A stretch of DNA of 63,454 bases, filler included, from Licmophora abbreviata (lineage: Eukaryota): NCBI GenBank assembly GCA_900291995.1. It is 14 parts of 14 records of this genome, joined end to end, with 100 filler letters (N's around TTAATTAATTAA, not from the genome) between each part and the next. Parts side by side here need not be neighbours in the genome. Positions count along the whole stretch, not along the records: positions 47,736 to 50,260 come from OLMU01005910.1; positions 50,361 to 55,833 come from OLMU01005911.1; positions 55,934 to 57,023 come from OLMU01005912.1; 11 more parts are not named here. One strand, written 5' to 3'. Below the pieces are notes generated by a model. It was given only the letters and a program-made list of their open reading frames with translations. It did no database searches and had not been told where the DNA came from. A program made the translations under genes and the position numbers. Below are positions 5,333 through 60,100 of this stretch, in pieces. The stretch's first letter is position 1. Every line of letters begins with the position of its first letter.

Positions 5333-6906
5333 TCAAACCTTGTGTCTACTTGTGACAGGCGCGGTTGGATATCCAAGATACTTGATGGCTTCAGCGATCG
5401 CTGTGCCGAGACAAATGGGAACTGCGTTGCCAATCTGCTTTCGTTTCTCTGTCATGCTTCCACAAAGTACGAACGAATCGGGAAACGACTGGATCCTGGC
5501 TAGTTCTCGCACAGTAACGTTTCTCTGACGAGAGTAGTGTGTCACACCCTTTGCAGTCCGTACCGTACGTGCTGGCACGTTTCGCGAGAGGACGTCGCTG
5601 CCGCCTTTTAGGCCTGCTGCGTCTATACCATGATCCTCGATAAGCACATCTCCCAAACACACAAGCCCGCTTCCAGTTTCAGGCTCAACGTCCTCAAGGT
5701 CACGGAGAGCAGCCTCGGGGGTGACGTACGGCTTGAGTCCTTCTCCATGGGTCGCCTTGGGAAATTCGGGCAGCTGTATCCCGGGCTTGGCGAGCAGCAG
5801 GAAAACACGCGGTCTATGCTGAGGGTCACCAAGGTCCGAGGCTCTGAGAATGCCAGCGCGAGCTTGATAGCCGGCTTCCATAACTATTCTTGCAATAAGC
5901 TTGTCAAAGTAGTTTACATGTTGATCTCGCAACATCTGAATTATCAAGCGCGCACGAGCGACAAGGAGTGAGCAAGGTTAGCCATGTAGCGTCTATGTTT
6001 TTTGTGTCGACGTACCCCGGTAACGTTCTCGAACGACGCTGTGAGTGGATTGAAAAACTTGATGTACTCGATCAAGACGAAACACAACATGTTGTTCGTT
6101 TCATCATTTGCTCCTCCGCTAATATTCGCATCCGAGAAGCCTTGCGAAAGAGATCCGCAAAGGTGGAGTGAACGGGGGTGTATCAGACAATATGCGACTT
6201 GAGAGAGAGACGTACCGTTACAAGGTGATGATGAATGGATGTGATCGATATCGCCGGGCTTTGGATACATGCCATACCTTGGGTCGCCCGCGTAGCCGAG
6301 TTTGCATTTGGCAAGGAAATCCCACACATCGTCTTCAAACACCTGTGTATGCATGTGTCCCTTTTTCAACAAATTCAATCTATGCGAGTCCGCCGCGTGG
6401 CGGTTCTTCTCAACTATCCACTTGACGTTGAAGTAGTTCGACTGAGCGAACGCATGTGAGATTCCTTCGCAGCCCGCAAATATGTCGAGCATAGTCGGTT
6501 GTCGGTGGTCGGGAGTCTTTTCCTTGGGCTCTCGAATCTTGTAGGACGCCTCCCATCCGACGGCGCTCTTGCCCTTCTTGGATCCTGTCTCCCACATGAT
6601 GGGTCGTTCCAACATCGCCGGCGGCTCCGTTCGGTTGTCAAGATCACTGAGCCTGATCTCCTCTGTATGACGCAAAAACACATAGAAGTCGACACCTTCT
6701 CGTTTGATACCACTCTTCACCTTTGTGTCGAAGAGCGTGTCGCTGAATGGAATAGCAACTTCACACTCCGCAGTCTTTTTCTTTCTGTTTCTCAAGAGCT
6801 TTCGAATAACATAACTCGCCTTGTTCTCGACATGTGCGGGAACGATATTCTGCTTGCACAACTTCCAGGCACGCTTCCGGGAGGTATACGCCTCGCCCAG
6901 ACAGAA
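5333..6906 (-). CDS. C5-cytosine DNA methyltransferase, RID/DNMT4-like; 5' end truncated by gap; introns 6141-6215 and 5936-6015
   Basis: After splicing the motifs fall in canonical order: I LDIFAGCEG, IV HIHSSSPCNGFS, VI FENVTG, VIII QHRPRVF, IX RELARIQSFPD, X QIGNAVP. The frame is open up to the gap. Confidence 0.88.
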
Positions 6907-7707: not shown

Positions 7708-10700
7708 CTACAGCTCGTCCTCCCCTGCTTCTCCAGGTGGTTGCGTGTTCTCGGTGGCTTCACTCTTAGAGTCTCCCTCCGTTGCATCGCCTTCCGTTGA
7801 GGTGTCATTCTGGGCATCTGTCGCATTCACTTCTGTAATAGTCTCGTTCCCTTCGGCCGACGTCTCGTTCTTCTTTTCCTTTTTCGGCTTGGGCTTGCGA
7901 CTCAGTCGCGTAATCAAGACCTCCAGACTCTTGCCCTGAGCAGGAATCTCAGTCGACAAGAAGATCGGATCCTCGGTTGGCTCCGCCAAGTCTTGCGCTT
8001 CTTGCTTCTCAGAGATCCAAGCGCGAACTTCTTCTACCTTGTCCAACACGTCCTTGCGTTCCTCTTCGGTCACTTGTGGCATGGTCGTCTCCCATTTCGT
8101 CATGAGATCCTCCACAAGTTTGAGCTTTTCCAGCATGGCCTTGACGCTCTCCGGGCGTGCCTTCATTTCGACAACGCGCAACATGAGTTTCTCCATAGGC
8201 GTCGAAAGCTCAACGTACTTGTCTTCCATAGTCGCCAAATCGGCATTGTACCCGTCGTCGTACATCCACTCTTCGGCGTCTTCAGATAGCTTGGACAGTT
8301 CAGCCCGCTGGGCTTCCGTGGAAACAGCGGCAATCGCCTCTTCGTCATCAACCAACTTATTCTTGATCTTGTAAATATAGCTCTCAACCTTGTTACGAGC
8401 CTCCTCGAGCATCATTCGCTCTTTATCTTTCCTCGCCAGCTCGGCGAGCTTGGCCTTGGATTCTTCCATCAGAACCGAAGAGTAAGGTTGGACGGGACCG
8501 ACGTGGTAAGTTTCAACATCGAGAGTCTTTTTGTGAACCTTTGTCTTCTCCTGTGTTACAAAGGGAGACATTGGGGCGTGAATGGCAACAGAATGAAAAG
8601 TCTTGAGAGCAGGGGTGTTTGAATGCGCAACTAGTACTTTGCCGAGTGCCGATGCTCACCTTGTCCACCATTTTCGTCTTGCGAACTTTTGGGGCCGCCT
8701 CGGCCGTCGCGTTCGCTTCAGTTTTGTTGGAAGTCGCTTCCGTTTCTGCTTCCGCCCCCGCCCCGGAGTCAGACTCCTTTGCATCGGACGATTCACTTTC
8801 GTCGCCGCTTGGCTCTTCCTTTTCGGCCGTGGCGGCCTTATCATCCTCCTCGACAGTGGGATTCTTCTCGTCTTCGTCGTCCTCGACTTCAACTTCTTCC
8901 TGCACAATGACTATCTCCTCGACAGCAGCTTCGGCCTTGACGAGCTTTGTGATGCCACTCGTGCTCAATTCGAACTGGAGCGAAATCTTAGGCTTTCCGA
9001 GCCCCTTTGCCTCCATCTCTGCTGAAAACGCTTCCACGCCCGTAATGTTGTATTGCTCAATGGCGGTGCTGTTACGCGGCAATGAAGCGACAGCGATTTA
9101 AGTCAGCAATTAAGGAGCAAATGCACACCATAGATCCAACAGCCACGGTAATACACTCACTTGGTTCCCGTCGGAAGTAGATCGTCCTCGGCGTAGCTGA
9201 TCTCGCAGTGTACGTCCTTATCGTGGGTGAATGCAATCGTCTTTTTGACACCGACCTTGCCGAAACTCTTGAACATGGTCGCCTGCTTGGACCACGGTTC
9301 CTCCTCATCATTTTCGCTCTTTTTCTTTTTCTTCTTCTTTTTGTCACCTCCTTCTCATGATCTTCCAGTGACACACTAATGGCAAACGGGTTGACGTCGG
9401 TCAAACCAACATGTCGCACTCGGAATGCGGTACTAATGTTGGCACCGTGAAACGCAGCACCGAGAGCCATACTCTCGTCGCTGTTAATGTGCATTCCAAG
9501 TTCCGTCACGTGCTCTCCGAGATATTGCTGGAGCGTTTCCTGAATCTTGGGTACGCGCATACCACCACCAATCAGTTCAATACCATGGACTTGTTCGAGT
9601 GTGACATTCGCCGCTGCCAGCGCAGTATCAATCGGTGCCACCGCACGCGTCAACAGATCATGAGCCAGATTCTCCAAATGAGCGCGAGTGAGATGCGTGT
9701 TCAAGGGTGTATCATCGAACAAGGCGTCAATGTAAATGGGGATTTCCGAATTGGCACTCAGCACATGCTTGACCTTGTTGGCTTGGAGTCGCAACTTGGT
9801 CATGCTGCGCATGTTACTTCGCACATCGCCCTTGGATCCCTTGTAATTCTCATTGAACTCATCTGCAAGGTACTCCACAATAACATGGTCCAACGCGTTA
9901 CCACCGAGCGTATTGTCCCAAGCCTTACCCAAGACTTCAATACCGGCAACAGTCTTTTCTTTTCCATATTTTCCTTCCTTGTGAGGGTACGAAAAGAACT
10001 TGACAACGCTGACTTGCAAGGCACTCCCACCAAGGTTGTAAAATATCAAAATCTGCGGTTCCTCGGGGAGCTTGTCCATGCCGTAGTGCAATGCAGCTGC
10101 CGTCGTTTCGTCAATCAGCGCCAGTACACTCAAGTCGGCCAACTTGGCCGCATCCAAGAGAGCACGACGTTCGTGTTGTGTCGCAAAGGATGGTACAGTG
10201 AGGACACAGTCTTTGACATTACTGAGCGTTCCTTCTTTGCCCTGTTCTTCACCAAAGGCGGCAGTAATGTCCCGGGCATGCGTCAAGACCATGGCCACGA
10301 GTTCTTCCGGCGTAAATTCAATGTTATCGACCGTCAAACAGACACCGGAACGAGTTTCGTTGTACGAAGGAGTCAGAGGATAATGGCGTTCCGCAAGGAC
10401 CTACGAAAAAAGGAGGAAAAGATGTGGTTGTGAGAGTCGTGAGTGCATTTTAGTATTGGGTTCTGGCGAGAGCCATCGTTTCTGACAATGACCGTAGAGG
10501 AGTGATCATTTCGATCGTGTGCCGCTACAGGAGTGGGACCTGGACTTCCCCCGTCAGTAAATTACAGTCGCAACTCACCTCTACAGTCGGATGGGTCTGC
10601 TCCTTTCCAAGAAGAACCGACATGGCAGTGGGCGTCTTGAGGGGTTTACGCGCCAGCAGACTGCTGGCATCGGCTCCGTAGAAACGCGTATTTTGGTCAA

Positions 10701-35214: not shown

Positions 35215-37383
35215 TCAACCATTGCAAAACGGATCCGATGTGTCAATGCCGCGATAGCCCAATGAGTCAAGCACGAACTTGGCAGAACGTTCGCCTGAAC
35301 CCCAAGCGCCTTGAACGGATTCCCATTGATCGAGACAAGCACAAGCTCCGCTCACATGCAGAATCCATTCTCCATTTTGGTTGCATCCATTGTGCTCGCA
35401 ATACGCAGTGAGGGTGGGGAATCCGCCAAAGAAGTTAGCATAGTCCTGCAGCGACGACCCAATCTTCCAGTATGCGAGTGCTCCATATCCAAAGTCGATA
35501 TCCTTATTCAGGGCCACGTACTGCATGTCAATTGGATCGACAAACTTGTTTTGATAGATAGTTCGAAGTGGATCAAGTAACGCGTCAAGGGTGTCCGACG
35601 TGAGCGTCCCTGAAGCGTCAGCTACCTCTTCAAAGGCTTCGGTCATGAGAAAGCAGACCAAGATCTTGCTGTTCTTATGAAAGCTGTCGTGGTTCAGGTT
35701 TAGCCACTGTTGGCATCTACCTCGGTTCGCGAGGTCCTGGACAGCTACAAGATATTCAGTGCTATCCCAGAAAGCTGTATCAAACTGATAGAACACCTTG
35801 ACAGACTGTGCCATCTCGAAAGGGGAGTGTGTTTCGTGGGGATACGCGAGGGGCGGCGAAAACGAAACCAAGTCGTTGTTGATCACACCAGTGCTCACAG
35901 TGAGGATGGTGCGCAAAGCAAAATAGTCGACGCAACCCGATGATGTCTCGGCCACAATCCGCGCCTTGTAGTCTTTACCGTCGTGAAGGAGATCAATGTC
36001 GTATTCAATCTCGGTAACTCGCATGTTAGTAACCAAAGATCCCACCCGAACGTGATTGTCATGATATGTTTGGATCAACGACTCGAAGCCTCGTTGATCT
36101 AGCACGAGCTGATTCGCATTGGCGTAAGGAAACGACAAAGCCGATACATCTGCCTTTGCCATAAACCAGTCAATGTAGATCCATTCCATGGCGTATTCGA
36201 GATTATCGCTCAGTGTGTCCCCTTTTCCGACCTTGAAGCCGTTGTCGGCGAACACCTTGACGATACCATTGTCAGGTGGCGGGTTGTCGCCCCAGTAAGC
36301 CTCCATATCCTGGACGGCCCCGTCCCACGCGTTGTCCAAGCTTTCTAGAACTTCCGATACCTTGCTCTCCTTGACAGCAGCGCCTGTTTTCATATTATAC
36401 AGACTCCAGTCGTACCAGTCATTCTCGACGAAATCCAGTCCCATCGCATTCGCCTCATTCCATACTGGGTTTGTCGTATCAGGCCACATCCAGTTGGCGC
36501 CTTCTTCAACGGTATAACCTCCAAACTGCGTTGACCGGACGCGCCCCCCAATACGGTCTGTACTTTCAAGAATTTTGATATCCAAGTTGGGGTCGATCGC
36601 ATGCAATCTCGCGGCAGCTGCAATACCCGCTGCACCGGCTCCAACAATGACCACATCTGCGTAAACTGCACTAGAACAAGACTTGGAATCGATCCGAGTT
36701 GGACGAAGCGATGGAGCCTCGCTTGAACTAGAACTTGGGACTGACGTTGGCTCCGCGGAAGGAGATGATGATCGCCGCATACTTGGACGAACAGTTGGGA
36801 AAGACGATGATTCCGTTGAAGGATCAGTCGACGGGCTTGCAGTTGGATTTGTACTTGGATACGTGGATGGTCCTGTCGTTGGTGCCAATGAGGGACCTTC
36901 GCTGGGACGTTCACTTGGATAGTTTGTGGGAATTTTGGAAGAAAGTGTCGACGGTAATGAGCTCGGCTCTATCGAGGACTCACGGCTGGGACGAAAGCTT
37001 GGCACCATCGAAGGCCTTGTACTTGGCCTACCGGACAGTGGAAGACTCGGCGCACCGGACGGGGCGTCCGTCGGCCGAGTTGCGGTTCTCTTTCTCAATC
37101 CTGCAGATCGCGGACTTGACGTGGTCGAGTCCTGTATCCGAAAGTTTTGCAAGAAAGAGTTCCGATTTGATGCCGCTTCCCCCGATCGCTTTCGTTCCAG
37201 CCATCCCTCTAGGCCGTCACCACGTCCTCGAAGTCGATCGAGTTCAAAATTGGATTGATTGACCACCTCTCGAAATGGTTCTGATTGCTTCTCATCGTTC
37301 AGGAGGCTGCCTTGCGCCCTAAGGATACTGATAAACGACAAGAGCGTGAGGGATTTTCCATAGGCCTTCATTGCAGAAGTCAT
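35215..37383 (-). CDS. Secreted flavin-containing amine oxidase (polyamine oxidase-like) with Pro/Ser/Thr-rich stalk
   Basis: Signal peptide; PSxxPS repeats; VVIVGAGAAGIAAA, ILESTDRIGGRV, EEGANW, FSPPL, KVFYQFDTAFW and VQGAWGSGERSA. Start is ATG 37383 or 37371. Confidence 0.87.
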   Translation of the reverse strand: MTSAMKAYGKSLTLLSFISILRAQGSLLNDEKQSEPFREVVNQSNFELDRLRGRGDGLEGWLERKRSGEAASNRNSFLQNFRIQDSTTSSPRSAGLRKRTATRPTDAPSGAPSLPLSGRPSTRPSMVPSFRPSRESSIEPSSLPSTLSSKIPTNYPSERPSEGPSLAPTTGPSTYPSTNPTASPSTDPSTESSSFPTVRPSMRRSSSPSAEPTSVPSSSSSEAPSLRPTRIDSKSCSSAVYADVVIVGAGAAGIAAAARLHAIDPNLDIKILESTDRIGGRVRSTQFGGYTVEEGANWMWPDTTNPVWNEANAMGLDFVENDWYDWSLYNMKTGAAVKESKVSEVLESLDNAWDGAVQDMEAYWGDNPPPDNGIVKVFADNGFKVGKGDTLSDNLEYAMEWIYIDWFMAKADVSALSFPYANANQLVLDQRGFESLIQTYHDNHVRVGSLVTNMRVTEIEYDIDLLHDGKDYKARIVAETSSGCVDYFALRTILTVSTGVINNDLVSFSPPLAYPHETHSPFEMAQSVKVFYQFDTAFWDSTEYLVAVQDLANRGRCQQWLNLNHDSFHKNSKILVCFLMTEAFEEVADASGTLTSDTLDALLDPLRTIYQNKFVDPIDMQYVALNKDIDFGYGALAYWKIGSSLQDYANFFGGFPTLTAYCEHNGCNQNGEWILHVSGACACLDQWESVQGAWGSGERSAKFVLDSLGYRGIDTSDPFCNG

Positions 37384-37663
37384 AGTCTTGTGCAACACAT
37401 CCGGGAAAAAGTGCCGACTTCGTCATATCGTGGTTTGTGTGAGGCGTCTGTCTCAAGGCTCGTCCAGTTGTGCCGATAAATGCCAAGCAAGAGTACAAAG
37501 TATCGTAATGACCTTGATACAATGAATAAGGACGCACGGTACTGCAATGACGTATAAATAAGTNNNNNNNNNNNNNNNNNNNNNNNNNNNNNNNNNNNNN
37601 NNNNNNNTTAATTAATTAANNNNNNNNNNNNNNNNNNNNNNNNNNNNNNNNNNNNNNNNNNNN

Positions 37664-39111
37664 CTCCGGAGGGAATCTTTCTTGGTCGTTCTGTTGAAGA
37701 CGTGGACGTGTGCGTGATCGGTGCGGGTGTGAGTGGCCTCGTGGCGGCCATTACAGCTGCAAACGAAACTGACACAGGTGCGAAGATTGTCGTACTGGAA
37801 GGGTCAGCGACTGTTGGAGGGCGAGTACAGTCGGATTCGACGACCGACGGGTACGTTTTGGATCGAGGATTTGCCGTCTTTATTGAAGAGTACCCCGCTG
37901 CCAAAATTCTCTTGAATTACACAACACTAGCACTGGGAAAGTTTCAGCCGGGAGCCTTGGTGAAACTTAAGGGTGAAACGTCGCTGGCGCGAGTAGCAGA
38001 TCCGCTGCGTCAACCTTGGACAATTTTTGAGGGTATCGTCGCACCGGTGGGTACTCTGCTCGATAAGATCAAAGTTCTACCACTGATCTATCACGTCATG
38101 TCGCAATCGATTGAGCAGCTGTTTGACGAGCCCGAAACCGATACACTAACTTGCCTGAAGGAACGATGGGGCTTTTCCGACGCAATTGTCGATCGCTTCT
38201 TCAAACCCTTTCTAGAAGGCATCTATCTCGCTCCATTGGAAGAGCAGAGCTCCCGTATGTTCCATTTCGTCTTCAAAATGTTCTCCGAAGGTGCCGCTAC
38301 TTTACCCAAGGGGGGTATCGGGGAGGTCGCAGCGCAATTGGAAAAGCAAGCCTTGGACAAGGGCGTAGAAATTCGTACCGGTCAGCCCGTCGGCGCAATC
38401 GTCACCGACGACAACAATGAAGAAAGGATCCGAGTCAATCTGAGGGACGAGCGAAGGACGATTCGCGCCAGGAGTGTTATTCTAGCGACAGAGGGTCCGG
38501 CAGCGAGGGATCTACTGGGCGGAATGGAGGCCTTGCGTTCGCTGGAAACGGTTGAGCAAAATCCTCAACGCGAAGTCGGATGCTTGTACTATGGATTCAA
38601 TACGACAGTTCCCGTTTCGGATCCGATTCTTGTTCTCAGCGGGTACTGTGAAGATCGTGGGTCGGAGGCAAGTCCCATCAACAATATTTGCTTTCCGTCG
38701 GTCGTTAGCGAGGGATACGCACCAGAGGGGTGCAACTTGTGCAGCGTCACGGTATTGAAGGGCGCAATGAAGGCTTACGATGGACAAATCGACGATCTGG
38801 ATCAGGCCGTAAGGAAGGAGCTGTGCGGCTGGTTCCCTTCAGAGAAAGACAACATTCAAGACAAATGGGAACTTAAGGGCACATACCATATCCGCAATGC
38901 CCAACCGGCCCAGATGGGCAACCCCACATCCGCCAACATTAACGGCGGGAGAGACTGTACGTCATTCGGAGGTAAGAATCTCCCCGACGGGTTGCTGGTT
39001 TGCGGCGATCACATGGCCACAGCAACGCTCAACGGTGCACTCGAGAGTGGAGCGAACGCGGGAAGAGAAGCAGCGAAGGTGGTTCAAGAAGTAGCGAAAA
39101 TAGATTGCTAA
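37664..39111 (+). CDS. Flavin-dependent oxidoreductase (amine oxidase/protoporphyrinogen-oxidase-like family); 5' truncated
   Basis: VIGAGVSGL, VGGRVQSD..DGYVLDRGF, FFKPFLEGIYL, SSRMF.FVFKMF and CGDH..T.TLNGALESG. Confidence 0.87.
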
Positions 39112-47812: not shown

Positions 47813-48766
47813 ATGCTCAGTAGTACTGTACAGGCATCGCTTACTGAAGACAAAATGTCAGCGCAACGAACAGAAACAATTGATTTTTGGAACGACTATC
47901 ATCGCGCACCGACGACAACACAGTCCGTGGAATGGCTGGTGCATCCGACAGCGTATGTCTTGGAGAGAATACTCCGACATGTAAGCGACTGCAACACTAG
48001 GACGATAGAAAAGAGTGTGCTGGAGATTGGATGTGGAACGTCTTGTTTTTCCAGAGAACTCTTTTGTTTTCATCGACGACGCGAACTGTCCTCCGCGCCA
48101 CTGTCCATTGTGGCGACGGACGCCAGTGAAGCCTGCATTCAGTCCAACCGAGAGCGTGACAAAGAACTTACTAGGAGCTGCAGTAGCAGTAGTAAAGAGA
48201 GATTTCAGTATCAGGTTTTGAACGTGGTTGATCCCACAATCGACGATAAGATCCACCATCGAAACAAGTACGGCATTGTCTTGGACAAGGCCTGTCTCGA
48301 CACGCTCCTGTATCGAAGCAAGCAGCAGGCGGAGGCGACTCTGATGCGAGAACTACTCAACAATGTACACTCCTGGCTAGCGGATGATGGCCTTTATATT
48401 GTCATTACTCCGAGAAGAAAAGTACGGTGGTTGCGAGACTTTCGAGGGTTTCGACATGTGGAGCGACACAAGCTGAACGAGGCAGAACCTGGGTTGCTTG
48501 ACGGAAAGCTCGCATCGTCTAACGTCTCCGCTACTATGTTCATGTTTGTCTGTCAAGGAAACAACGAGTACCGTCACAATGGAACGGGAGACGACAATAC
48601 TCGTACTTGCTTTCGTAACACGACCTTGACGCAACCATCCGAAGACTCGTTGTGTGGCGGATGCGGCCTTACTTTTGCAGATCTTCGAAACGGCGAGGAT
48701 ATCCAGGGCAAAGGAAGCAAGTATTGGACTCGTCGCTGGAGAGGGCACTGTCGTCACTGTACGTAA
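47813..48766 (+). CDS. Class I SAM-dependent methyltransferase (METTL13/EEF1A-KMT-like) with C-terminal Cys/His cluster
   Basis: FWNDYH, VEW, VLEIGCGTS, IVATDAS and IVLDKACLDTL. C-terminal CGGC...HCRHC. Confidence 0.8.
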   Translation: MLSSTVQASLTEDKMSAQRTETIDFWNDYHRAPTTTQSVEWLVHPTAYVLERILRHVSDCNTRTIEKSVLEIGCGTSCFSRELFCFHRRRELSSAPLSIVATDASEACIQSNRERDKELTRSCSSSSKERFQYQVLNVVDPTIDDKIHHRNKYGIVLDKACLDTLLYRSKQQAEATLMRELLNNVHSWLADDGLYIVITPRRKVRWLRDFRGFRHVERHKLNEAEPGLLDGKLASSNVSATMFMFVCQGNNEYRHNGTGDDNTRTCFRNTTLTQPSEDSLCGGCGLTFADLRNGEDIQGKGSKYWTRRWRGHCRHCT

Positions 48767-49014: not shown

Positions 49015-52000
49015 TCAATGCGGCGACGAGAAGTCAAGCATAGTGGCTCGTAGAAGGTGCCACGGAAACTCCGGGAAGAATTCATTCATCACGCCCACAA
49101 TCTGGTGCCAATAGCTGATCTGGCAGGCATGGTGCTGCTCAAAGAAGACGTACACGGCTTCCTTTGACCAATTGGTGTGATAATCGCAAACAATCATGCC
49201 ATACTGCTCCAAGGCGCGAAACACTGTTGTTACCTCAGACGGTGCGTCTTCGGTGAGCGGGCTATTGGTAAGGAACTGGAAGTGCATGCCGCGAGGCAGC
49301 TCTCCCGCCTTGTCTTTATGCACGCTCAAGCAAATCGCATGCTGCACAGCAGCATAGTTGTTGAGCTCTTCGAGCTGAATCATACCGACCGGGGAGAGTT
49401 GAGGAGCTACGTCTTCGACGTGACCAATAGTCTCACTTTGCTTCTCCACAATCAACGCCTCCTCTGCTTGCCAGCTCGTCACACCGCGACTTTGCCTCAG
49501 CGGGCGAATGTTGTGGAATGCCCACAATGTATCTGTGTGTTTCTCTAGCACAACAAGACGAGGGACAACGATGTGTGACTCTACCTTGCCCGCTACGGGT
49601 GGCAGGGGTGCCAAAACGACGCTCTCATTGTGTTTGCCGTCACTGCGAACAAACACACGTGATAGCTCCGCATCAGAGTCGGCGGATACAATCTCGACTC
49701 CGTAGAAATCTGACTCGAATCTGAAGTTCCACGGTCTATCTGATGGATGATCTTGATTGAGCTCCGCGGATTTCGTGAGCTGGCTTAGTAGCGTGCGAAC
49801 TAGTAGGGGTGACTGAGGATGTATGAGTGCATCATCCTCCGAAAGCGTGCGATTTTCAAAGAACCGAGACAAGGGCGAGAGGAACGGATAGGTGGAGCTA
49901 GAGAAGTGATGCGTGTGGACATGTACGACCTCGCCTGTCCAATCCACGACGCGCAACTCGAGCACGTGATCGCCCGGCAAAAAGTCCTGGGGAATCAGAC
50001 GCATGGGGAATGGCACTTCCCACAAGAGAGTCAGCAGATGACCATCAAGATAGGCCTCAACAAGCATTGGATTACGTGGTTCGATCGTCGCGAATAATGT
50101 AGCGGGCTCCGTCAGCACTGACATTGATGGCGTCAGATGCAAACTCCACTCTGACGCCACGTCGTCTGCAATGAGCCCCGCCTTTTTTGCGACCTTCATC
50201 GCATTGGAGCTCAAGGTCATGTTCTTATTCACGACATTTCCATCTCTGGGATGAATCCTTNNNNNNNNNNNNNNNNNNNNNNNNNNNNNNNNNNNNNNNN
50301 NNNNTTAATTAATTAANNNNNNNNNNNNNNNNNNNNNNNNNNNNNNNNNNNNNNNNNNNNATTTCCATCTCTGGGATGAATCCTTCCTTCGTTTTGATTT
50401 AACGCTCTGGTGCTGCCTGCGCTCTTTTGCTCCTGTAACGATCGGAGGACACGATTGAGATCCAAAGAGAGACGTCTCACTTCCGTTTGCTGAATAAGTG
50501 GCGCAAAGTCTTCGGCTCGGTGCACCAACGACCGCACCGTCTCAGCAAAGTCGCACGGGTCGTCACAAACCACGATATCCAAAAGCTCTGTGGCGGGACC
50601 AAATTCTTGATTGAGGGCATGTACACCAGAGGAAGTGCTCACCATAGGCAAGCCAGAGCCACTCATTGCCACATTCATCGCCAATTGAAACACACTCGCT
50701 GACGCGTGTACTGGCATTGGGTTAATGAACACCAGTGGACTGCCTGTGCTATTCTGCACCAATGCAGCGAGATCTGCATCCAACACTGGAATAAGACCAG
50801 CTTTAGAAGCCATGTCCGCAATGATACTCTCCAAGTTGTCATGTGTTTCATTGCCAACGAGAAATAACTGTGTCGGTTGACGCGCAGTTGTACCAGAGCG
50901 GCTGTCGACGTGGAGTGGGCACGACTGCCAAGCCTTGGTGAACCAACGCATCGACTCTATATCAGATCCGGCGTAAACGATGCCTTCTGCCTCAGCTGCC
51001 GGAAGGTCCTGCTTTTTCAGAAGAGACAGTGTGACGTTGGACACTGACGACCGGGGAGTGCCAGCAAGCGCCGCCGTAAGTTCCATCGCCACAACACCCA
51101 TGTCTCCTACATGGCACAAATGATCGACTTGGAGAATCGCGAGACGACGACTTGCGTCCCATTCTTCGGAAAGGAGCCAGCTGTCATCATACATCACCAA
51201 CACGAAGTCGACACTGGGGCCCAACAGGTACCGTAGACGCTCGGCCAGCAGCGGCAAGCCTACACATCGTGGCTGCATAGAGTGGGTGGAGAGCGTGGCG
51301 AACACGAGATCGACCTGCTCAAACATTTGTCTCGGTATGTCCACAAGCTCCACAAAGACAATGCCTAGTCGACCATCCCGACCAGCCGTGTTGGCGACAG
51401 TTTCTGTCACGTATACGACGTCGATCCCGAGATCGAGCAACGCCTGGCTTTCGTCCACACCAGTGCACGCATTCAGACGGCCAAACACTGGCAGGATTTG
51501 GTGCCCAGCCTCACGCAATGCCACCATTATCCCGTAAACGTGCAAGTCTTCCGCAGAATCAAAGATGCACGGGAAGTGCTCATGGGCTACAATAGTAAAG
51601 CCCTCTCGTTGAATAGGCAAGAACGTATCCAAGCGCTGGCTCAGAGCCGAGCTAGCAATCATTGGAGGATGATACTGCCCAAGCCAAGTTGCCTCTCTGC
51701 TGACGTCCGTTTTCTTCATACCATGCATTTCTTCGGCCGCCTCCGTTCTGATCATATCGCGCATCTCCCCCGTCATCTGCTTACGCCAACGATCCGAATC
51801 TTCCATCTGCGAGACGAATCTCAAGGCGCTCGTGTCAAACACGCCCCCGGCACATCTAGGAGTGTTGAAAAGCATGCACTCACTCAGAGACTGCCTCCAA
51901 GCATCTTCCGGGTGCGCCATCGCCGAGACAGCGAATGACCTCGACTGGCGCTGCCGCAGCTCGTGATACTCTGGACAAGAGCGCGTCACATAATGTCCAA

Positions 52001-55000
52001 CATGCATCTGATTGAAGGAGATACGATCGATCTTGTTAGCGCCGTGTTGTTCATCGAAATTCTCCATCGTGACGACGGTACCGGGAGAGCGCGAGAAACA
52101 GTTCATCGCCACTTCATACTCGCTGTAGAATCGACAGGCCTCTAGCGGCGCCGTTGCAGTCTGGATGAGCAATACAAACGAGGAGTCGACTGCCATTCCT
52201 GCCGCCATTGTATAGTCAACTAGGAAGCTACCAGCTGACGCAGGCGGCCGCTTGTTAACCCAGCCGTTGGGACCGAATGGTAAAACACTCGCCACCACAG
52301 CGACATGCTCTTGGTACGATTCAAGCGTCGACACCATTGTCCTATCCCATCGAGATGTCAGATAGTGGTCCAACCCAGGCATAAACGCAACCCAATCAGC
52401 AGTCTTGTTGTGATCACTCAAGCACGTTTGATAAAGGTGCGCACGAACGCTCTCTTGGGTCATATTTTGCGCATCTACGCGATTCTGATCCCCAGCCTCG
52501 TACAGCGTCAGCATTCCCTGCGCTACAAATGGTGCAGCGACGCTGCGCCAAGGCTTCTCACGCATGGGCTCTGCTTTCGGATCTTCGTAGAGAAACGCGT
52601 GACCTACGCCTTGCGACGAGTGGAAATCAAGCCACTCAGAAAGTTGGTCAAACTGAGCTGGTTCGAAAATGCCACAGACAGCAAGAGGCACGTGTGACCT
52701 TAAGGCTGAATCGCGCTCAAGGACATAACTCGTAGTGACCTTTGACTCAAGCGGGGGTGGGGCTTCACTGAATCGATAGTGAAGCATTGCACCTTCATGG
52801 CTGACAAACGAACCACCGCACTCTTCGATCAATGTCCGGTTGCAGAAATCATGACAAAGATCGTGCACAAACACATCTAGGGGCTTACGGTAGCGTCTTT
52901 GTTTGTACAGCTCCCGTAGAACCAGCGCATAGGCGTTAGCTTGGTGCTCAAGATGCTGAAAGCGTCCCGTAAAGTCCATGATTAGAACATCCCATGGTGC
53001 ATTTGTCACGGCGCTAGGCACACTGATTTGACTCGGCCAAGAGTCTAAAGAGGTCGGATGGTTTGGGAACCACACCGGAAGGACGAGGTCAGATCGAACG
53101 AGGTGCGATGGCAGGCCGAGGAAGACAAACCAAAACGAGACCGTCGACAAAACACGCGTTTCTCCCAGGCGATTTATGGAGAGCAGGAGTGGCACGTACT
53201 GCGGCGGATCGCCAGCAATAAGAACGCGTGGTCCCTCGGACCCGCGTCCAAGCTTCTTTGCCTTTTTGCGCGCAGCTTTCGTCAACAGCGCGCTATCCGC
53301 AGGTTGCCATCTCTCAAGCATTCCTTCCATATTATCATGAAGAGATTGAAGCCAATCGGCCACATAGCGAACGCCATCCTTCATCTTCTGACCTAGTCGT
53401 CGTTCGATTCCCTCCAACTGGCGCGTGACGTGGAGATCACGGTGCTGCTCTAGCGTGCGTGGGGGTGTCGAATTGGAGGCCCGCGCAGCTAGTCGAGCGC
53501 GAACACTTGGAGCCCACTTTTCCAGAGTCCCATCGAAAGCAGTGGCGCGTTCCTCCATTATATGACACGCATCTGCGCCGATACGTTGAGCGATCCACTT
53601 CGTCCCCTGTGTCGTCTTCCGAGTCGCTTCTTCTACGAGCTCTTCGCCCGTTGCAGAAACAATCCATGCCCTACGCTGATGTGTTCGTTCCGCATATTCT
53701 TCACAAGAGCGCATAAGGAAGTGCCCAACATAGGCAACATCATACGGTGGTGGCGGGTCAGTGTGCCATGACTGTGTTACCGTACGGAAGCTTGTATCAA
53801 CAGCCACGATATCAGGGCGTTCGCATTTAGCGAACTTAGGATCACCAACTGGGAACCAGGTGGAGTCCTTTTGATGCACCATATTGAAGCCTTGACAATA
53901 CGACCCAAGAGGATTGTGCGCGTATCCACCTCCGTAATCGACAGTGAAGCCACAGTATTCCAAGGCTACCACGTTCAAATTAAGAATAGTCTTTCCGTCA
54001 ATCTGAGCCTCAGTCACACCTTCTGGGGTGTCGCAATGACGACAGTCCTTGTAGCGTGTGTAGCTTGCAATGGAGATGTCCCCCGACCGGTTCATGTGCC
54101 CGCTTGGCCCAAACGCCTTCGACGCGAGAAATAGCCCCGCGTGATTCTTGTAACGAGCCACCAACTCAGTCAGCGACTGCAGTGGTGGTACAATGGCAAT
54201 GTATTCGTCAATGTCCATAAACGCAATCCAGTCCGCATCAAACTGGTGTTGAGCAAGACAATGCTCCAGCGTGGCTGCCTGTGCATATCGCGACAGAAAC
54301 TGACGATCGACTGTTACTAAGTTCTCGTTGACGTAGGGCTCTAGTACCTCGGCCCAGTTGTCGCTGGAGCCGTCCTCGTACAGCCAAAAATGATCGACGC
54401 CGAGCATGTGATGGTACTCGATCCACTCCGCAAGGTAAGGCCCCTCGTTCTGCATAGCGGCACACATGGCCATGTGGAAAGGACGCTTGCTACCACGCGA
54501 AGTATTGGACAGCAGTACGGAACGTGGTGAACGCATTTCGCCAAACCGCTCTTTCCACCTGACAGTGTTGTTCGTCTCTACGACTGACTCATTCACATAA
54601 ACATGATGTTTGGTATTGTCTACCAGACAAAACTCCGTCGCGTCGTCAGCGGCCATCCCCGTGGGTTCCAGCTGAACGTACTGCGTGTAGGGATGATCGC
54701 CATAGCCACGGCGGACAAAAAGTACCGCATCATTCTGATCAAGTGGATTTTCAGTTACCATGTTTGGTCCCGAGTCCGGCAATAAAGGCTCAAAGCTATG
54801 CAACCAGTAGCGCCGAGACATGTGCACAACGTCGTGTGGACACATGCTGGAGCAATCCTTTTGACCAGCGCCTGTTGCCCAACCATCTAGCGCCGAGCAT
54901 CTCTCGGCAGAATTGGCGCGGCGGATCGGGTTAGAGCTACGAAGGTATTCAGCAAGGCCTCCAGGACGAAACGCCACCACGTTCAGCATCGTCTGGTCTT

Positions 55001-55833
55001 GCAGATAGTTCGCTCGCGTTAGATGTGGCATCGGAAGAAGGCAGGTCTCATTCAACGAGCAGTCGAGCCACGGCTCAAGCACGAGGCGGGCGCCGGGCCC
55101 CGTCCGCGCCATTCCAAGGAAGGTCGCGCATACCTCAACATACTTGAAAGGCAGGAATCTATCGAATGTCACATTGTCGCCTAAGCTCTGCAATGCAACC
55201 AAGGGTGTAAACCTTGGCACCGGGTACACGTCAGGGGAGTAGTAGCCATTGGCTGAAAGCCAGTATCCGTCGCGATCAAGATCGTGGCGAATGTCCGAGA
55301 TGCTACGACGTAGCTCCATACCAGAGTCCAGCCACATGACACAGGCATGACGACGCAAGCCATCTCGCACCACCAATGACTTCCATGCGTACGAGCCGAG
55401 ATCCGCGCGATGAGGATGGTTCTCCGCGTCAATGTCGCTCGCAGGAAGACTGACAACCATTACGTTTGCAGTTGCGTTCAACAAGCACAGCTGCGTTTCA
55501 TTAAGACCAAAGTCGTAGATCTCAATGCGCCTATGTGGCTCCCACACATGGATAGACCCAATCAAGTTGTGGAGACGAGGAAACCAGTTTGCACTGGCTC
55601 CACTCATAACTACAAAATCATCGTCTGGGCAGTGGCCTCCACCAAAATCAGCCGGATCTCCTGGTGTCACCGGTTCGGTCACCAGCGCAGGTTTCGCACG
55701 TCCGTATGCACAGTCGGGCATTGCTGAATCAAAGATTGCACCCGTGACCGACATGGAGGAGGAGGTGTCGAGAGGACGCCCTGGCAGCGGCTGCTCGATG
55801 AAGGGCTCACAGAGAGAGCGGCCAATGATGCCA
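49015..55833 (-). CDS. Giant multi-domain glycosyltransferase-like protein (>2,200 aa), continuous across the linker at 50261-50360; 5' truncated
   Basis: The 25-nt overlap atttccatctctgggatgaatcctt flanks the linker and joins the 1813-aa and 405-aa ORFs in frame (RIHPRDGN-V-VNKNM). It contains a GT92/GT2-like module NEGPYLAEWIEYH..LGVDHF.LYED...WIAFMDIDEY and further modules. Confidence 0.82.
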
Positions 55834-55933
55834 NNNNNNNNNNNNNNNNNNNNNNNNNNNNNNNNNNNNNNNNNNNNTTAATTAATTAANNNNNNNNNNN
55901 NNNNNNNNNNNNNNNNNNNNNNNNNNNNNNNNN

Positions 55934-56571
55934 AGTTCGTCCAGGACGAGTGTGCCGTTGACGGGGCCGTACTCAAAGTCAAAGAAAAGAGCGCCACCAT
56001 CTGTGTCGGCATAGCCCTCGAACCCACGGAAGCCGGGAAGTGCATGATGTTCGGGCACGAACCACCCATATGGGAAGCTGAGTAAGACGACGTCGTTTTG
56101 TTCGCCATGCTTCTTGGCGCGAACCCCCACCTCGACCAGGTGGTTGCTCTCCTCTGACTGATCGGTGGTGAACCAGGACAGGCGGCCATTGATAAGCAAC
56201 GATTCATCGGAGTAGAGCGCGACCACGCTCCCGGGTTTGCCAGTGATTGTCTCAGACTTTCCATCGAAGCCACGAAACGAAAATTGAGCAGTAGGATGTT
56301 CAAACACTTCATCATCGCCGGTATCGAATGTTGCTTGGAGACGTCCTAGTGACGTGTTGAGGTAAGGCCTGCTTGCCTCTTGCGGTGGCTTCTTCTTGAG
56401 CTCACGGTCGATATCCCATATCGAGCCAATTTGGCAACCTGAACTCTGCAAGCTCCAATCCTGCCTCTCCTTCAGGCCTGCATCATTGAAGAATGAATCC
56501 CCCTCCACTATCTGGATCAATCCTGAGAGGAGCAGACCAGAGGCGAGTGCATTTTGCAGCCAGCGCATCAT
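55934..56571 (-). CDS. Signal-peptide-bearing N-terminal fragment; 3' truncated (possibly the start of the giant glycosyltransferase)
   Basis: MMRWLQNALASGLLLSGLIQIVEG; open to the gap; same strand as the ORF beyond the gap. Confidence 0.62.
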
Positions 56572-57123: not shown

Positions 57124-60100
57124 GACATGGCCCCGGTACAGAAACGGCGCATAATCTCGGATGCCGGCTCGACCTCTTCAATGGGGATGCTGCTGCGATC
57201 TGAATCCAAGTCCAGAAGGTCGCGAATATTCGCAAGTGGAGCAGTTTCAAGACTTTTCTGGAAAATCTCATAGTTGGCGACGCTCTTTGGCAGAACTCCG
57301 TCATTTTCTAGCTCGTCACGGTTTGTTGCAGCGCTAACTTTCTTGTCGAGACCAATCGCGTTGTGAAGAAGCTTGGCGAGATCGGAGGAGTTGATATGGT
57401 ATTCGCCAAGCGCAGGAACAGGCTTGTAGTAGCCGTAGTTGATCAGCTTCATCTTCGCATCTGCCACTTCGGGGCGCATCATGACCGTCTCAGAGGCAAT
57501 GTCTTCCAACGACATACCACCAATACGGCTGGTAGTTCCCTTGAAGCTCTTCTTGATCACCTCCTCGCCCATTCCGATAGCCTCGAAAATCTGCGCCCCG
57601 GAGTACGATGTCATCAACGAAATGCCCATCTTGGAAAGGATCTTCAGGAGACCGGCCTCAACAGCAGATCTGTAGTTCTCCTGCGCTTCTACCACAGTCG
57701 CCTTCTTGAGTTTACCTGCGTCCATCGCTTTTTGCGTCTTCGGTTGCTCGCGCCACTGCTTCACGGTTTCGAGAGCAAGGTAGGGGTGGACGGCGTTCGC
57801 TCCATAGCCCACTAAGCATGCAAAGTGATGCGTTGACCATGCCGATCCCGTTTCCACTATGATTCCAACGTCCATACGGAGTCCTTCGTCGATAAGACGG
57901 TGGTGAACCGCGCCAACACCAAGAAGAGGTGGGACGTACGTCGTCTCGTCAAGCTCGGCCTGGTCAGCGGCGAAATCGGTTAGAACGAGAACTTCTGCAC
58001 CGTTGCGAACTTCTTCCACCGCCTTGTCACAGAGCACCTCCATAGCGCCGCGAATGGCAGACGGACCGTCTGCGAGACTGTAGCGCGTGGATAGTTTGGC
58101 CTGCTTGAATCCACCGTTCTCCGACTTTCCATAGTCTGCAATACGGTCCATCTCAGCCCCATTCAGGACGGGCGACTCCAAATGAATCAATCGGGCGCCG
58201 ACCTCTGACACTTTGTAGATGCTCTCCTTCTTCCCAAGAGTCATTCCAAGGGACATGACGACTCCCTCACGAAGTGGGTCGATCGGAGGATTAGTCACCT
58301 GAGCGAAGCGCTGCTTGAAGTAGTTGTAAAGCGGATGAGGTCGCTCAGATAACACTGCGATTGGAGCATCGTCTCCCATTGAATAAGTAGTCTCCTTGGC
58401 AGCTCCAGCCATGTCTGCGATCTGCATACCAATATCTTCCAGCCCCCACCCGAAGGTAGCTTGTGCAAAGGTCGTTGTGGGATTATCGTAAAGCCTGTCA
58501 ACCGGAGCATCCTCCTTTGCGATGTCCTTTCGCTGGTTGGCAATCCATTCACCATACGGATGACCTGTGTAAACAAAGAAAACGGACGAAGGCTGAGTAT
58601 TCCGCCTAGCCGCAGACTCTTTCATTCGTGGAGCACCGCGTGGATCACACTTACGGGACGCAATCTCGCTCTTGATACGAATGTTGTCTTTAAATTCGCC
58701 ACTTTCCAAGTCAACGTTAATCATCTGTCCAGGACCCAAGCGTCCTTTTTCCACAATGTCGGCTTCGTTCAAGTTCGGAATCACACCCGTTTCACTCATC
58801 ATGTAGACGGTCCCATCCTTGGTAATACTGTACCGCCCCGGACGAAGTCCATTTCGATCCAACGACGCTCCAATCGACTTGCCGTCGCTAAAAACCAGCA
58901 ATGCGGGGCCGTCCCAAGCCTCCAAAAGACCTCCATGGAACTTGTAAAAGTCAACAATCTCTGGATTGTTCGCCAAATCGGGTGAGTTCTCGTAAGCCGT
59001 TGGCACCAGCGCCATCAAGGCACATGGTGCGCGATGGCGCGACTGACACATCAGTTCAAAGACGGAATCAAGATTGGCCGAATCAGAGCGTCCCAAATCG
59101 ACGACAGGCTCCAAGACGGACGGAATGTCTTGCGTATTGCACATGGTAACAATATTTTCGGTGGAATCGTAGTCTACCAAGTCTCGGACCTCCCCTGACT
59201 TGGACGCCTCACGGGCCTTGATCCAATTGACATTGCCCAACAGCGTATTGATTTCTCCATTGTGTCCTACAACACGCATTGGCTGTGCCAGGGGCCAACG
59301 GGGATTGGTATTGGTGGAGAAGCGACGATGATAAATGACAAACTTGGTGGTGTAATCCTCGTTCGTCAAATCCTTGTAAAAGAGTGGCAAAACGTGGGAC
59401 TGCACCATGCCCTTGTACACTAGGGTTCGGCTGCTAAAGGACGCAACGTAGACTTCACCCTCATCGTCGTCCCATACCAATCCACGATCGCGAAGCTCGA
59501 CACTAAAACGCCGTCGCACCAAATACAGCGTGCGCTCAAATCCATCACGTGTGTCGTCATCGTTATCGAGTCGGTCCGGTGACTTGACAAAGAGTTGCCA
59601 GATACTAGGCATGGCAGCTCTTGCAGTCTCACCGAGTACATCCGGATCAACCGGCACTTCTCTCCAGCCCAGTACGTCCAGTTCGTTTGCGCGACACACA
59701 TCTTCAATGAGTGCCTTCACTTGCTCTCGTCGGTCGGCATCACGAGGCAGAAACATCATACCAACACCGGGCTGAGGGCAGTCCTTGGAGCGGAAATCAT
59801 CAAACATGTTCCAAGGGATCTGAGTCATGATCCCAGCACCGTCACCGCTGACACCGTCTCCACCACAGGCACCACGATGTTCCATACAAGTCAACGCGGA
59901 GAGACCCTCTTGCAGAACCATGTGAGTGCCAAATTCCTCTGGAGATATGAAAAGAAAAAGACGTAAGGAAAACGCTCATTCAGCTCGACTCTACACACAA
60001 AACACATTCGTCGTACCTCCACTTTGCGTATTGGCAATGAATCCGACTCCACAGGCATCACGTTCCTTGGTCAGAGCCAAGGGGCCATCAAACATGTTGC

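Follow-up and report, generated by a model that had tools for sequence, protein, structure and literature searches.

Does the stretch of Licmophora abbreviata DNA analysed here (assembly GCA_900291995.1; 63,454 bases, hereafter the window) hold, hidden by the filler between its contigs, the gene of one very long protein for glycan synthesis? The window consists of 14 contigs joined by linkers of 100 nt each, which have the form N44-TTAATTAATTAA-N44, and two open reading frames (ORFs) on its minus strand stand on either side of one such linker: an ORF of 1813 aa at 50313..55754, 15 codons of which come from the N linker, and an ORF of 405 aa at 49015..50232. A reading made earlier from the letters of the window (hereafter the sequence-only reading) had taken the two ORFs as one gene encoding a multi-enzyme glycan 'assembly line' with six units, a to f. 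The follow-up described here led to an answer that we regard as likely: the assembler would have broken one gene, from the nucleus of a marine microbial eukaryote, into two contigs, and its product, no shorter than 2,204 aa (hereafter the giant protein), would be a glycan-synthesis protein that combines an intact GT92 glycosyltransferase (GT) domain (module b), a degenerate GT92 domain (module d), a DUF1647-like domain (module a) and about 1,100 orphan residues.

The contig ends at 50260/50361 were found to share an exact overlap of 25 nt, the sequence at 50236..50260 (a feature without strand) being identical to that at 50361-50385, and this was the sole overlapping junction of the 13 tested. 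The 25-mer was counted twice in the window, both times at these two contig ends, whereas 0 occurrences were expected from 100 shuffles. The overlap joins the two contigs in frame, and the peptide RIHPRDGN is read in frame in the translations of both contig pieces. The frame runs for 1,798 aa from Met 55754 to the true contig end; the 3′ contig part of the gene (49015..50260, minus strand) carries the C-terminal 414 codons and the stop (49015-49017), and the merged protein from Met 55754 is 2,204 aa long. Upstream of this Met the frame stays open for 26 codons and reaches the contig end (55755..55833, minus strand), and the true N-terminus of the giant protein probably lies beyond it. Both the merged length and the open upstream end had been described correctly in the sequence-only reading.

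Among 7,996 candidates scored in a search of 5.8 billion clustered proteins, one long relative was found, P0002 (1,513 aa, 51% identity). P0002 is collinear with residues 460-1601 of P0001, in which the residues of the longer piece are numbered here, and with residues 33-410 of the C-terminal contig piece. As the two halves thus occur together elsewhere, in matching order within one protein from one contig, P0002 supports the join, and the proposal that the 1813-aa and 405-aa ORFs form one gene stands on the in-frame overlap together with this collinearity on both sides. The identity of the modules to P0002 or to P0003 was 41-66% for all of them. P0003 is a fragment of 237 aa, 63-66% identical to module a over residues 117-336, and was the only shorter relative of module a among 8,000 candidates; for module e, no shorter relative was found among the 8,000.

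Module b (residues 446-760; 53553..54497, minus strand) matched Pfam PF01697 (GT92) with 87.9 bits in the whole protein (E 1.1e-24) and with 72.8 bits as a segment alone, against a cutoff of 23, and Pfam PF13704 (Glyco_tranf_2_4) with 69.4 bits (E 3.9e-19). Alignment by hhalign with a GT92 profile of 67 sequences gave a probability of 100% and an E of 5.9e-45, and a sequence search matched the module to the galactan synthase of PDB 8d3t at E 0.0013. The results also showed that module b keeps the stretch D540-I-D542-E543 as well as K614, H639 and H704, and in addition S489, E469, W470 and H474; D540, D542, E543 and the other residues named stand in columns that are conserved in 60-67 of the 67 members. 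When aligned with the GT92 family, the module shows about 60 inserted residues (P0001 ~620-680, window ~53793-53975), an insertion that P0002 shares only in part. Module b is thus assigned as a GT92/DUF23 glycosyltransferase domain that is predicted to be catalytically intact, in agreement with the intact GT92 unit with DIDE that had been named before.

Module d (residues 1041-1335; 51828..52712, minus strand) has a GT92/DUF23-type fold with degenerate catalytic positions. Its score against Pfam GT92 was 22.8 bits, just below the cutoff of 23, and hhalign against the 67-sequence GT92 profile gave a probability of 99.9% and an E of 2.5e-32 over 219 columns. The 67-sequence family hidden Markov model (HMM) gave 116 bits, a score to be read with the fact that this HMM was built from hits chosen with module d itself. 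In an exhaustive phmmer search, residues 801-1824 were compared with 1.84 billion representatives and 219 proteins were obtained at E<=0.001; among the 150 matches listed, 149 fall on module d and the remaining one is P0002. Five invariant residues of the family are replaced in module d, namely D by G1153 (67 of 67 members have D), E by H1156 (66/67), K by Q1224 (66/67), H by N1244 (60/67) and S by K1086 (66/67), so that the local DxD region reads G1153-L-D1155-H1156. The same five replacements were seen in the counterpart of module d in P0002, to which module d is 59% identical; between modules b and d the identity is 26%. Because the five replacements are common to P0002, module d appears to be an old, maintained and conserved copy that is probably non-catalytic. 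By homology it is clearly a GT92 domain, as anticipated for a GT92-like unit without the DxD, and a predicted glycosyltransferase match is therefore found in both b and d and not in one module only.

Module a (residues 27-445; 54498..55754, minus strand) is DUF1647-like, with a Pfam match at residues 71-155 (55368-55622). The unit had been described as GT-A/DUF1647-like; the likeness to DUF1647 (PF07801) was recovered at E 0.0015, but the score of 18.7 bits lies below the family cutoff of 25.7. DUF1647 itself is a family that we take to be a member of the GT-A clan.

Modules c, e and f, about 1,100 residues in total, are, as judged from their sequences, conserved lineage-specific domains without recognised fold. 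Module c (residues 866-1025; 52758..53237, minus strand) is a conserved orphan domain, 61% identical to P0002, which contains DUF579-like motifs and the sole hydrophobic stretch of the available sequence (894-912). Three collinear stretches of this module presumably resemble the DUF579 signature; the second of its DUF579-like motifs, DVFVHD, reads EVFVQA in P0002. Module e (P0001 residues 1395-1824; 50361..51650, minus strand) is an orphan without a family match, and its second half (~1601-1824) is absent from P0002. Module f (about 406 aa, within 49015..50260, minus strand), an orphan that includes the proposed immunoglobulin (Ig)-like stretch, likewise had no family match, and its region in the 3′ contig part is 46-50% identical to P0002 1133-1495. 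Pfam, NCBIfam and PHROGs were without a match to modules c, e or f at E<=10, NCBIfam and PHROGs giving noise only, and Pfam at E<=10 also had none for the module c segment of residues 801-1010. Sequence searches of the PDB yielded nothing new for the three modules, those with the C-terminal piece and with the module c alignment included, and the matches listed from the exhaustive phmmer search contained no relative of module c or e besides P0002. The AlphaFold2 models were unusable, with a mean predicted local distance difference test score (pLDDT) of 38.8 for module c modelled with P0002 (2-row alignment) and of 34.5 for module e modelled alone (single sequence).

For module e, a profile of 43 GT4 proteins from bacterial loci (PF00534, PF13692 family) was used. 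The 43-sequence GT4 HMM gave an E of 2 by hmmsearch, and hhalign gave a score of 19.8 and a probability of 0.9%, compared with a score of 22.7 for the reversed control. None of modules a, c, e and f scored above the reversed controls with the 43-sequence GT4 and the 67-sequence GT92 profiles (hhalign/hmmsearch). By Atlas features, module e came near a few GT1/GT4 clusters with a score of 0.90, which is a lead only, 23 of its 30 hits being without family; its shared-feature counts were 146-165, below the 170 typical of true family hits. The best Atlas score of module f was 0.83, to a Y_Y_Y cluster, and is also a lead only. Three of the units proposed earlier found no support: the DUF579 methyltransferase (c) had no match in the three libraries and no phmmer relative, and its DVFVHD is not kept in P0002; the GT-B/GT4 unit (e) had no library match and aligned less well than its reversed control; and the Ig-like unit (f) had no match in Pfam, NCBIfam, PHROGs or the PDB.

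A further element of the sequence-only reading, an ORF with a signal-peptide-like start across the next gap on the same strand, is present at 55934-56571 (minus strand). It begins with MMRWLQNALASGLLLSGLIQIVEG, runs open into the linker and is a candidate for an N-terminal exon of the giant gene or for a separate gene. The contigs at 55833/55934 do not overlap, and the ORF showed no Pfam match and no similarity to P0003. A hydropathy scan of the giant protein detected no hydrophobic segment in residues 1-893 and a single one at 894-912. The contig probably lacks the real N-terminus of the giant protein and, with that, its targeting signal. A Golgi or secretory location would be expected from what GT92 enzymes usually are, as described in part of PMC3355507.

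It could be supposed that the protein is an assembly line in the full sense, in which one polypeptide of the secretory pathway, equipped with at least three catalytic transferases of different folds (DUF1647-like GT-A, GT92 and GT-B), a methyltransferase of DUF579 type and an Ig-like domain, would make an extracellular polysaccharide that bears methyl groups, but this appears unlikely to us. All the motifs quoted for the six units are indeed present in the translations (IYDFGL, YAWK, WLDSG, QDQ, DIDE, WDVLIMD, DVFVHD, LREAGH, LPMVST, VVCDDPCDFAE and YLDG...GDHVLELRVVD), and the likeness of module c to the DUF579 signature, which we presume from its three collinear stretches, would fit a methyltransferase; DVFVHD, however, is EVFVQA in P0002. 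The Atlas score of 0.90 places module e near a few GT1/GT4 clusters, and its residues 257-405 are collinear with columns 204-373 of the GT4 profile, the C-terminal Rossmann half, over 149 hhalign columns; yet the score of this alignment (19.8) is lower than that of the reversed control (22.7), the Atlas counts of 146-165 stay under 170 with 23/30 hits lacking a family, and P0002 is without the half of module e that would bind the donor sugar. Precedents exist in A064R and A111/114R of the chlorovirus PBCV-1, according to a portion of PMC7826918, but in the giant protein modules c, e and f are without a match at E<=10 in the three family libraries, the phmmer matches listed include no relative of c or e, and module d is without catalytic residues. 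More doubtful still is a eukaryotic single-polypeptide assembly line in which a DUF1647-type transferase, an active GT92, a cryptic DUF579-like methyltransferase, a glycan-binding GT92 pseudo-enzyme, a diverged GT-B and a beta-sandwich would act in sequence on an extracellular or scale polysaccharide; if true, it would be a cellular counterpart of chlorovirus A064R and A111/114R. The multi-enzyme proposal is partly supported: more than one module gives a glycosyltransferase match, but one alone of these modules looks catalytically competent.

The join itself may be questioned. We see only a slight chance that it is an artefact of assembly or scaffolding, in which the contigs would not be neighbours, the pieces would come from two paralogous genes or alleles, and the 25-mer would represent a repeat common to both or a k-mer at a graph branch. 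A shared k-mer at contig ends is typical of a de Bruijn graph branch, and the next contig has no continuation of a glutamate synthase gene that is cut at 57124. The two pieces of the giant gene, however, overlap in frame and agree in strand and orientation, the window has no further copy of the 25-mer, counterparts of both pieces follow each other in the same order in P0002, a single protein from a single contig, and the GC content at third codon positions (GC3) of the two gene pieces is 0.566 and 0.600. An origin of the contig from a bacterial or viral contaminant, so that the gene would not belong to a eukaryote, is the least credible possibility and strikes us as highly improbable. For such an origin speak the absence of any intron over 6.6 kb, the existence of similar giant multi-GT proteins of uncertain origin, and the fact that most distant metagenome GT92/GT2_4 relatives lie on bacterial-looking contigs, as seen from neighbouring genes and from Treponema and Spirochaetaceae titles of related contigs. 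Yet the best bacterial-type matches are 22-38% identical and cover one domain, and viral contigs yielded no relative of either module a or module e. Moreover, the GC content (0.537) and GC3 (0.566) of the giant gene are inside the range of the window's other genes, and its codon use correlates with theirs (r 0.68). These genes include clearly eukaryotic ones, for PI4K (PI 4-kinase), exocyst Sec6, a RAP-domain protein, PCNA, BTB proteins and glutamate synthase, and the agreement in GC, GC3 and codon use argues against contamination.

Several observations weigh against the single split gene and its proposed product, the reading that we consider likely. P0002 lacks P0001 ~1601-1824 and residues 1-32 of the C-terminal piece, and the approximately 250 residues that these make up around the junction are replaced by about 60 in P0002; since P0002 does not span the junction, the join rests on the 25-nt overlap and the flanking collinearity. 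No RNA is on record among the listed matching public runs (see below), which bears on the single transcript. Neither a signal peptide nor a membrane anchor was found in the available sequence. Finally, the below-cutoff DUF1647 match of module a extends over profile positions 60-140 of 141, and P0003 gave no match in Pfam, though P0003 lacks the part that corresponds to DUF1647.

If the single-gene reading is right, module b would act as a metal-dependent inverting transferase, by analogy with the GT92 family, and on the same analogy it would most likely be an enzyme of beta-1,4-galactosyl type. Module d is kept at 59% identity with its homolog despite the lost invariant residues, implying that its role is most likely non-catalytic; it would then be an acceptor- or product-binding or a scaffolding domain. 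Module a might conceivably be a second, different transferase. The fusion enzyme is real and moderately unusual. Since tandem-GT92 giants are already in the databases, it is a lineage-restricted form of a known type, and just one relative is known for its predicted architecture, in which a degenerate GT92 stands beside about 1,100 orphan residues.

The synthesis of glycans by marine protists, in scales, mucilage, adhesives and the exopolymers that enter the marine carbon cycle, is poorly mapped to genes. With a GT92 predicted to be active, a conserved and probably inactive GT92 and the orphan residues in one chain, the giant protein is a candidate for the study of the part that pseudo-glycosyltransferases play in processive or templated synthesis, and it is a source of possibly new carbohydrate-active folds. 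For annotation, it teaches that a check of contig ends for overlaps recovers long genes hidden in drafts whose contigs are joined by linkers.

The rest of the window was also examined. An ORF of 317 aa (47813-48766, plus strand) lies on the same contig as the 3′ end of the giant gene and converges on it; it showed weak matches to S-adenosylmethionine (SAM) methyltransferases (Methyltransf_23, E 2.2e-5, below cutoff), and any tie to glycan methylation would be pure speculation. The 6.6-kb intron-free giant ORF contrasts with a partial Hsp70 ORF at 9072-10337 (minus strand), which covers profile positions 106-403 of 599 only and suggests introns or a fragmented gene. The glutamate synthase gene (57124-59921, minus strand) comprises GATase_2, the central domain and the start of the FMN domain and is cut at the contig end; no continuation was found on the neighbouring 1.1-kb contig, suggesting that gap sizes or contig order are uncertain. 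In a test of contig order, no complementary halves of Pfam domains were found at the contig ends. Two flavin amine-oxidase genes (35215-37398, minus strand, and 37702-39111, plus strand) stand head to head around the linker at 37564-37663, the former with a PT-repeat N-terminal extension, and a C-5 cytosine DNA methylase domain (E 3.3e-11) was detected in an ORF at 5947-6906 (minus strand) that is open at the contig end. An Rfam scan of the window gave no match, ribosomal RNA included.

The middle contig was matched at >=99% by short contigs of four public runs, which belong to four studies, in 5 of 9 pieces for run X1, 6 of 16 for X2, 2 of 3 for X3 and 3 of 5 for X4. Two of these runs are labelled as marine metagenome and the other two carry coded organism names; the matches imply that the organism or close strains occur in marine samples. 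The share of the window's words found in public runs was 0.06-0.12, and parts of the window without run cover carry no meaning. A contig of X4 (record 20) extends 126 letters past 50361, and a contig of X1 extends 53 letters past 55833. One contig of X2 skips 158 bases at 53231-53390, in the b-c linker region, with 85% likeness and 12 other letters in 81 aligned, and it probably comes from a related organism or variant.

Metagenome contigs were scanned with the P0002/P0001 alignment. The result showed that 257 stretches fit the pattern, 44 of which encode a relative, at 43 loci. At all 43 loci the relatives are distant, and the match is confined to the GT92/GT2_4 domain parts; the architecture of the giant protein was found in none of them, nor was P0002's own contig found there. 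Fused cytidylyltransferase-phosphoenolpyruvate (PEP) mutase proteins are encoded on three of the metagenome contigs with GT92-like genes (L003:8329-9630, L005:7025-8320 and L016:13799-15100), which hints at clusters for phosphonate-decorated glycans.

One frame of comparison is the GT92 family, which includes Caenorhabditis elegans GALT-1 and plant GALS1 (PMC3355507, in part). GALS1, a beta-1,4-galactan synthase (PDB 8d3t), is modular, with a CBM95, a stem and a GT92 domain, according to excerpts of PMC11062476, and the giant protein resembles it in this modular build. Module b resembles GALT-1 and GALS1 in that it scores above the family threshold and keeps the DxD and the invariant residues. 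Its identity to GALS1, however, is very low (E 0.0013), and module b has the insertion of about 60 aa. GALT-1 and GALS1 are also type II proteins with a single GT and a length of about 400-500 aa, whereas the giant protein, at a minimum of 2,204 aa, joins two GT92 domains, one of them degenerate, to a DUF1647-like domain and some 1,100 residues of orphan sequence. DUF1647 genes of C. elegans cluster with putative Golgi glycosyltransferases, as stated in part of PMC7614267. With the Caenorhabditis DUF1647 proteins (PF07801), module a shares the match of residues 71-155 to the C-terminal part of the profile (60-140 of 141), but its score is below the Pfam cutoff, and DUF1647 itself is without assigned function.

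Consecutive glycan-building activities on one polypeptide are the feature that chlorovirus proteins have in common with the proposed product: in PBCV-1, A064R combines two rhamnosyltransferases with a methyltransferase, and A111/114R combines three GTs, as set out in a portion of PMC7826918. No sequence relation of these proteins to the giant protein was found, and A064R (638 aa) is far smaller. Their activities have been shown experimentally, whereas the giant protein is known from sequence alone. Tandem-GT giants were also present among the phmmer hits, namely P0004 (2,411 aa, three GT92 and four GT2), P0007 (2,155 aa, two GT92 with RgpF and GT2s) and P0031 (GT1, GT92 and EGF). Like the giant protein, they are very long polypeptides in which repeated GT92 domains are fused to other glycan-synthesis domains, and they are 22-26% identical to it, in module d alone. 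In these proteins, however, the partners are intact and recognisable as GT2, GT1 or RgpF, whereas in the giant protein the partners are orphan domains and one GT92 is degenerate.

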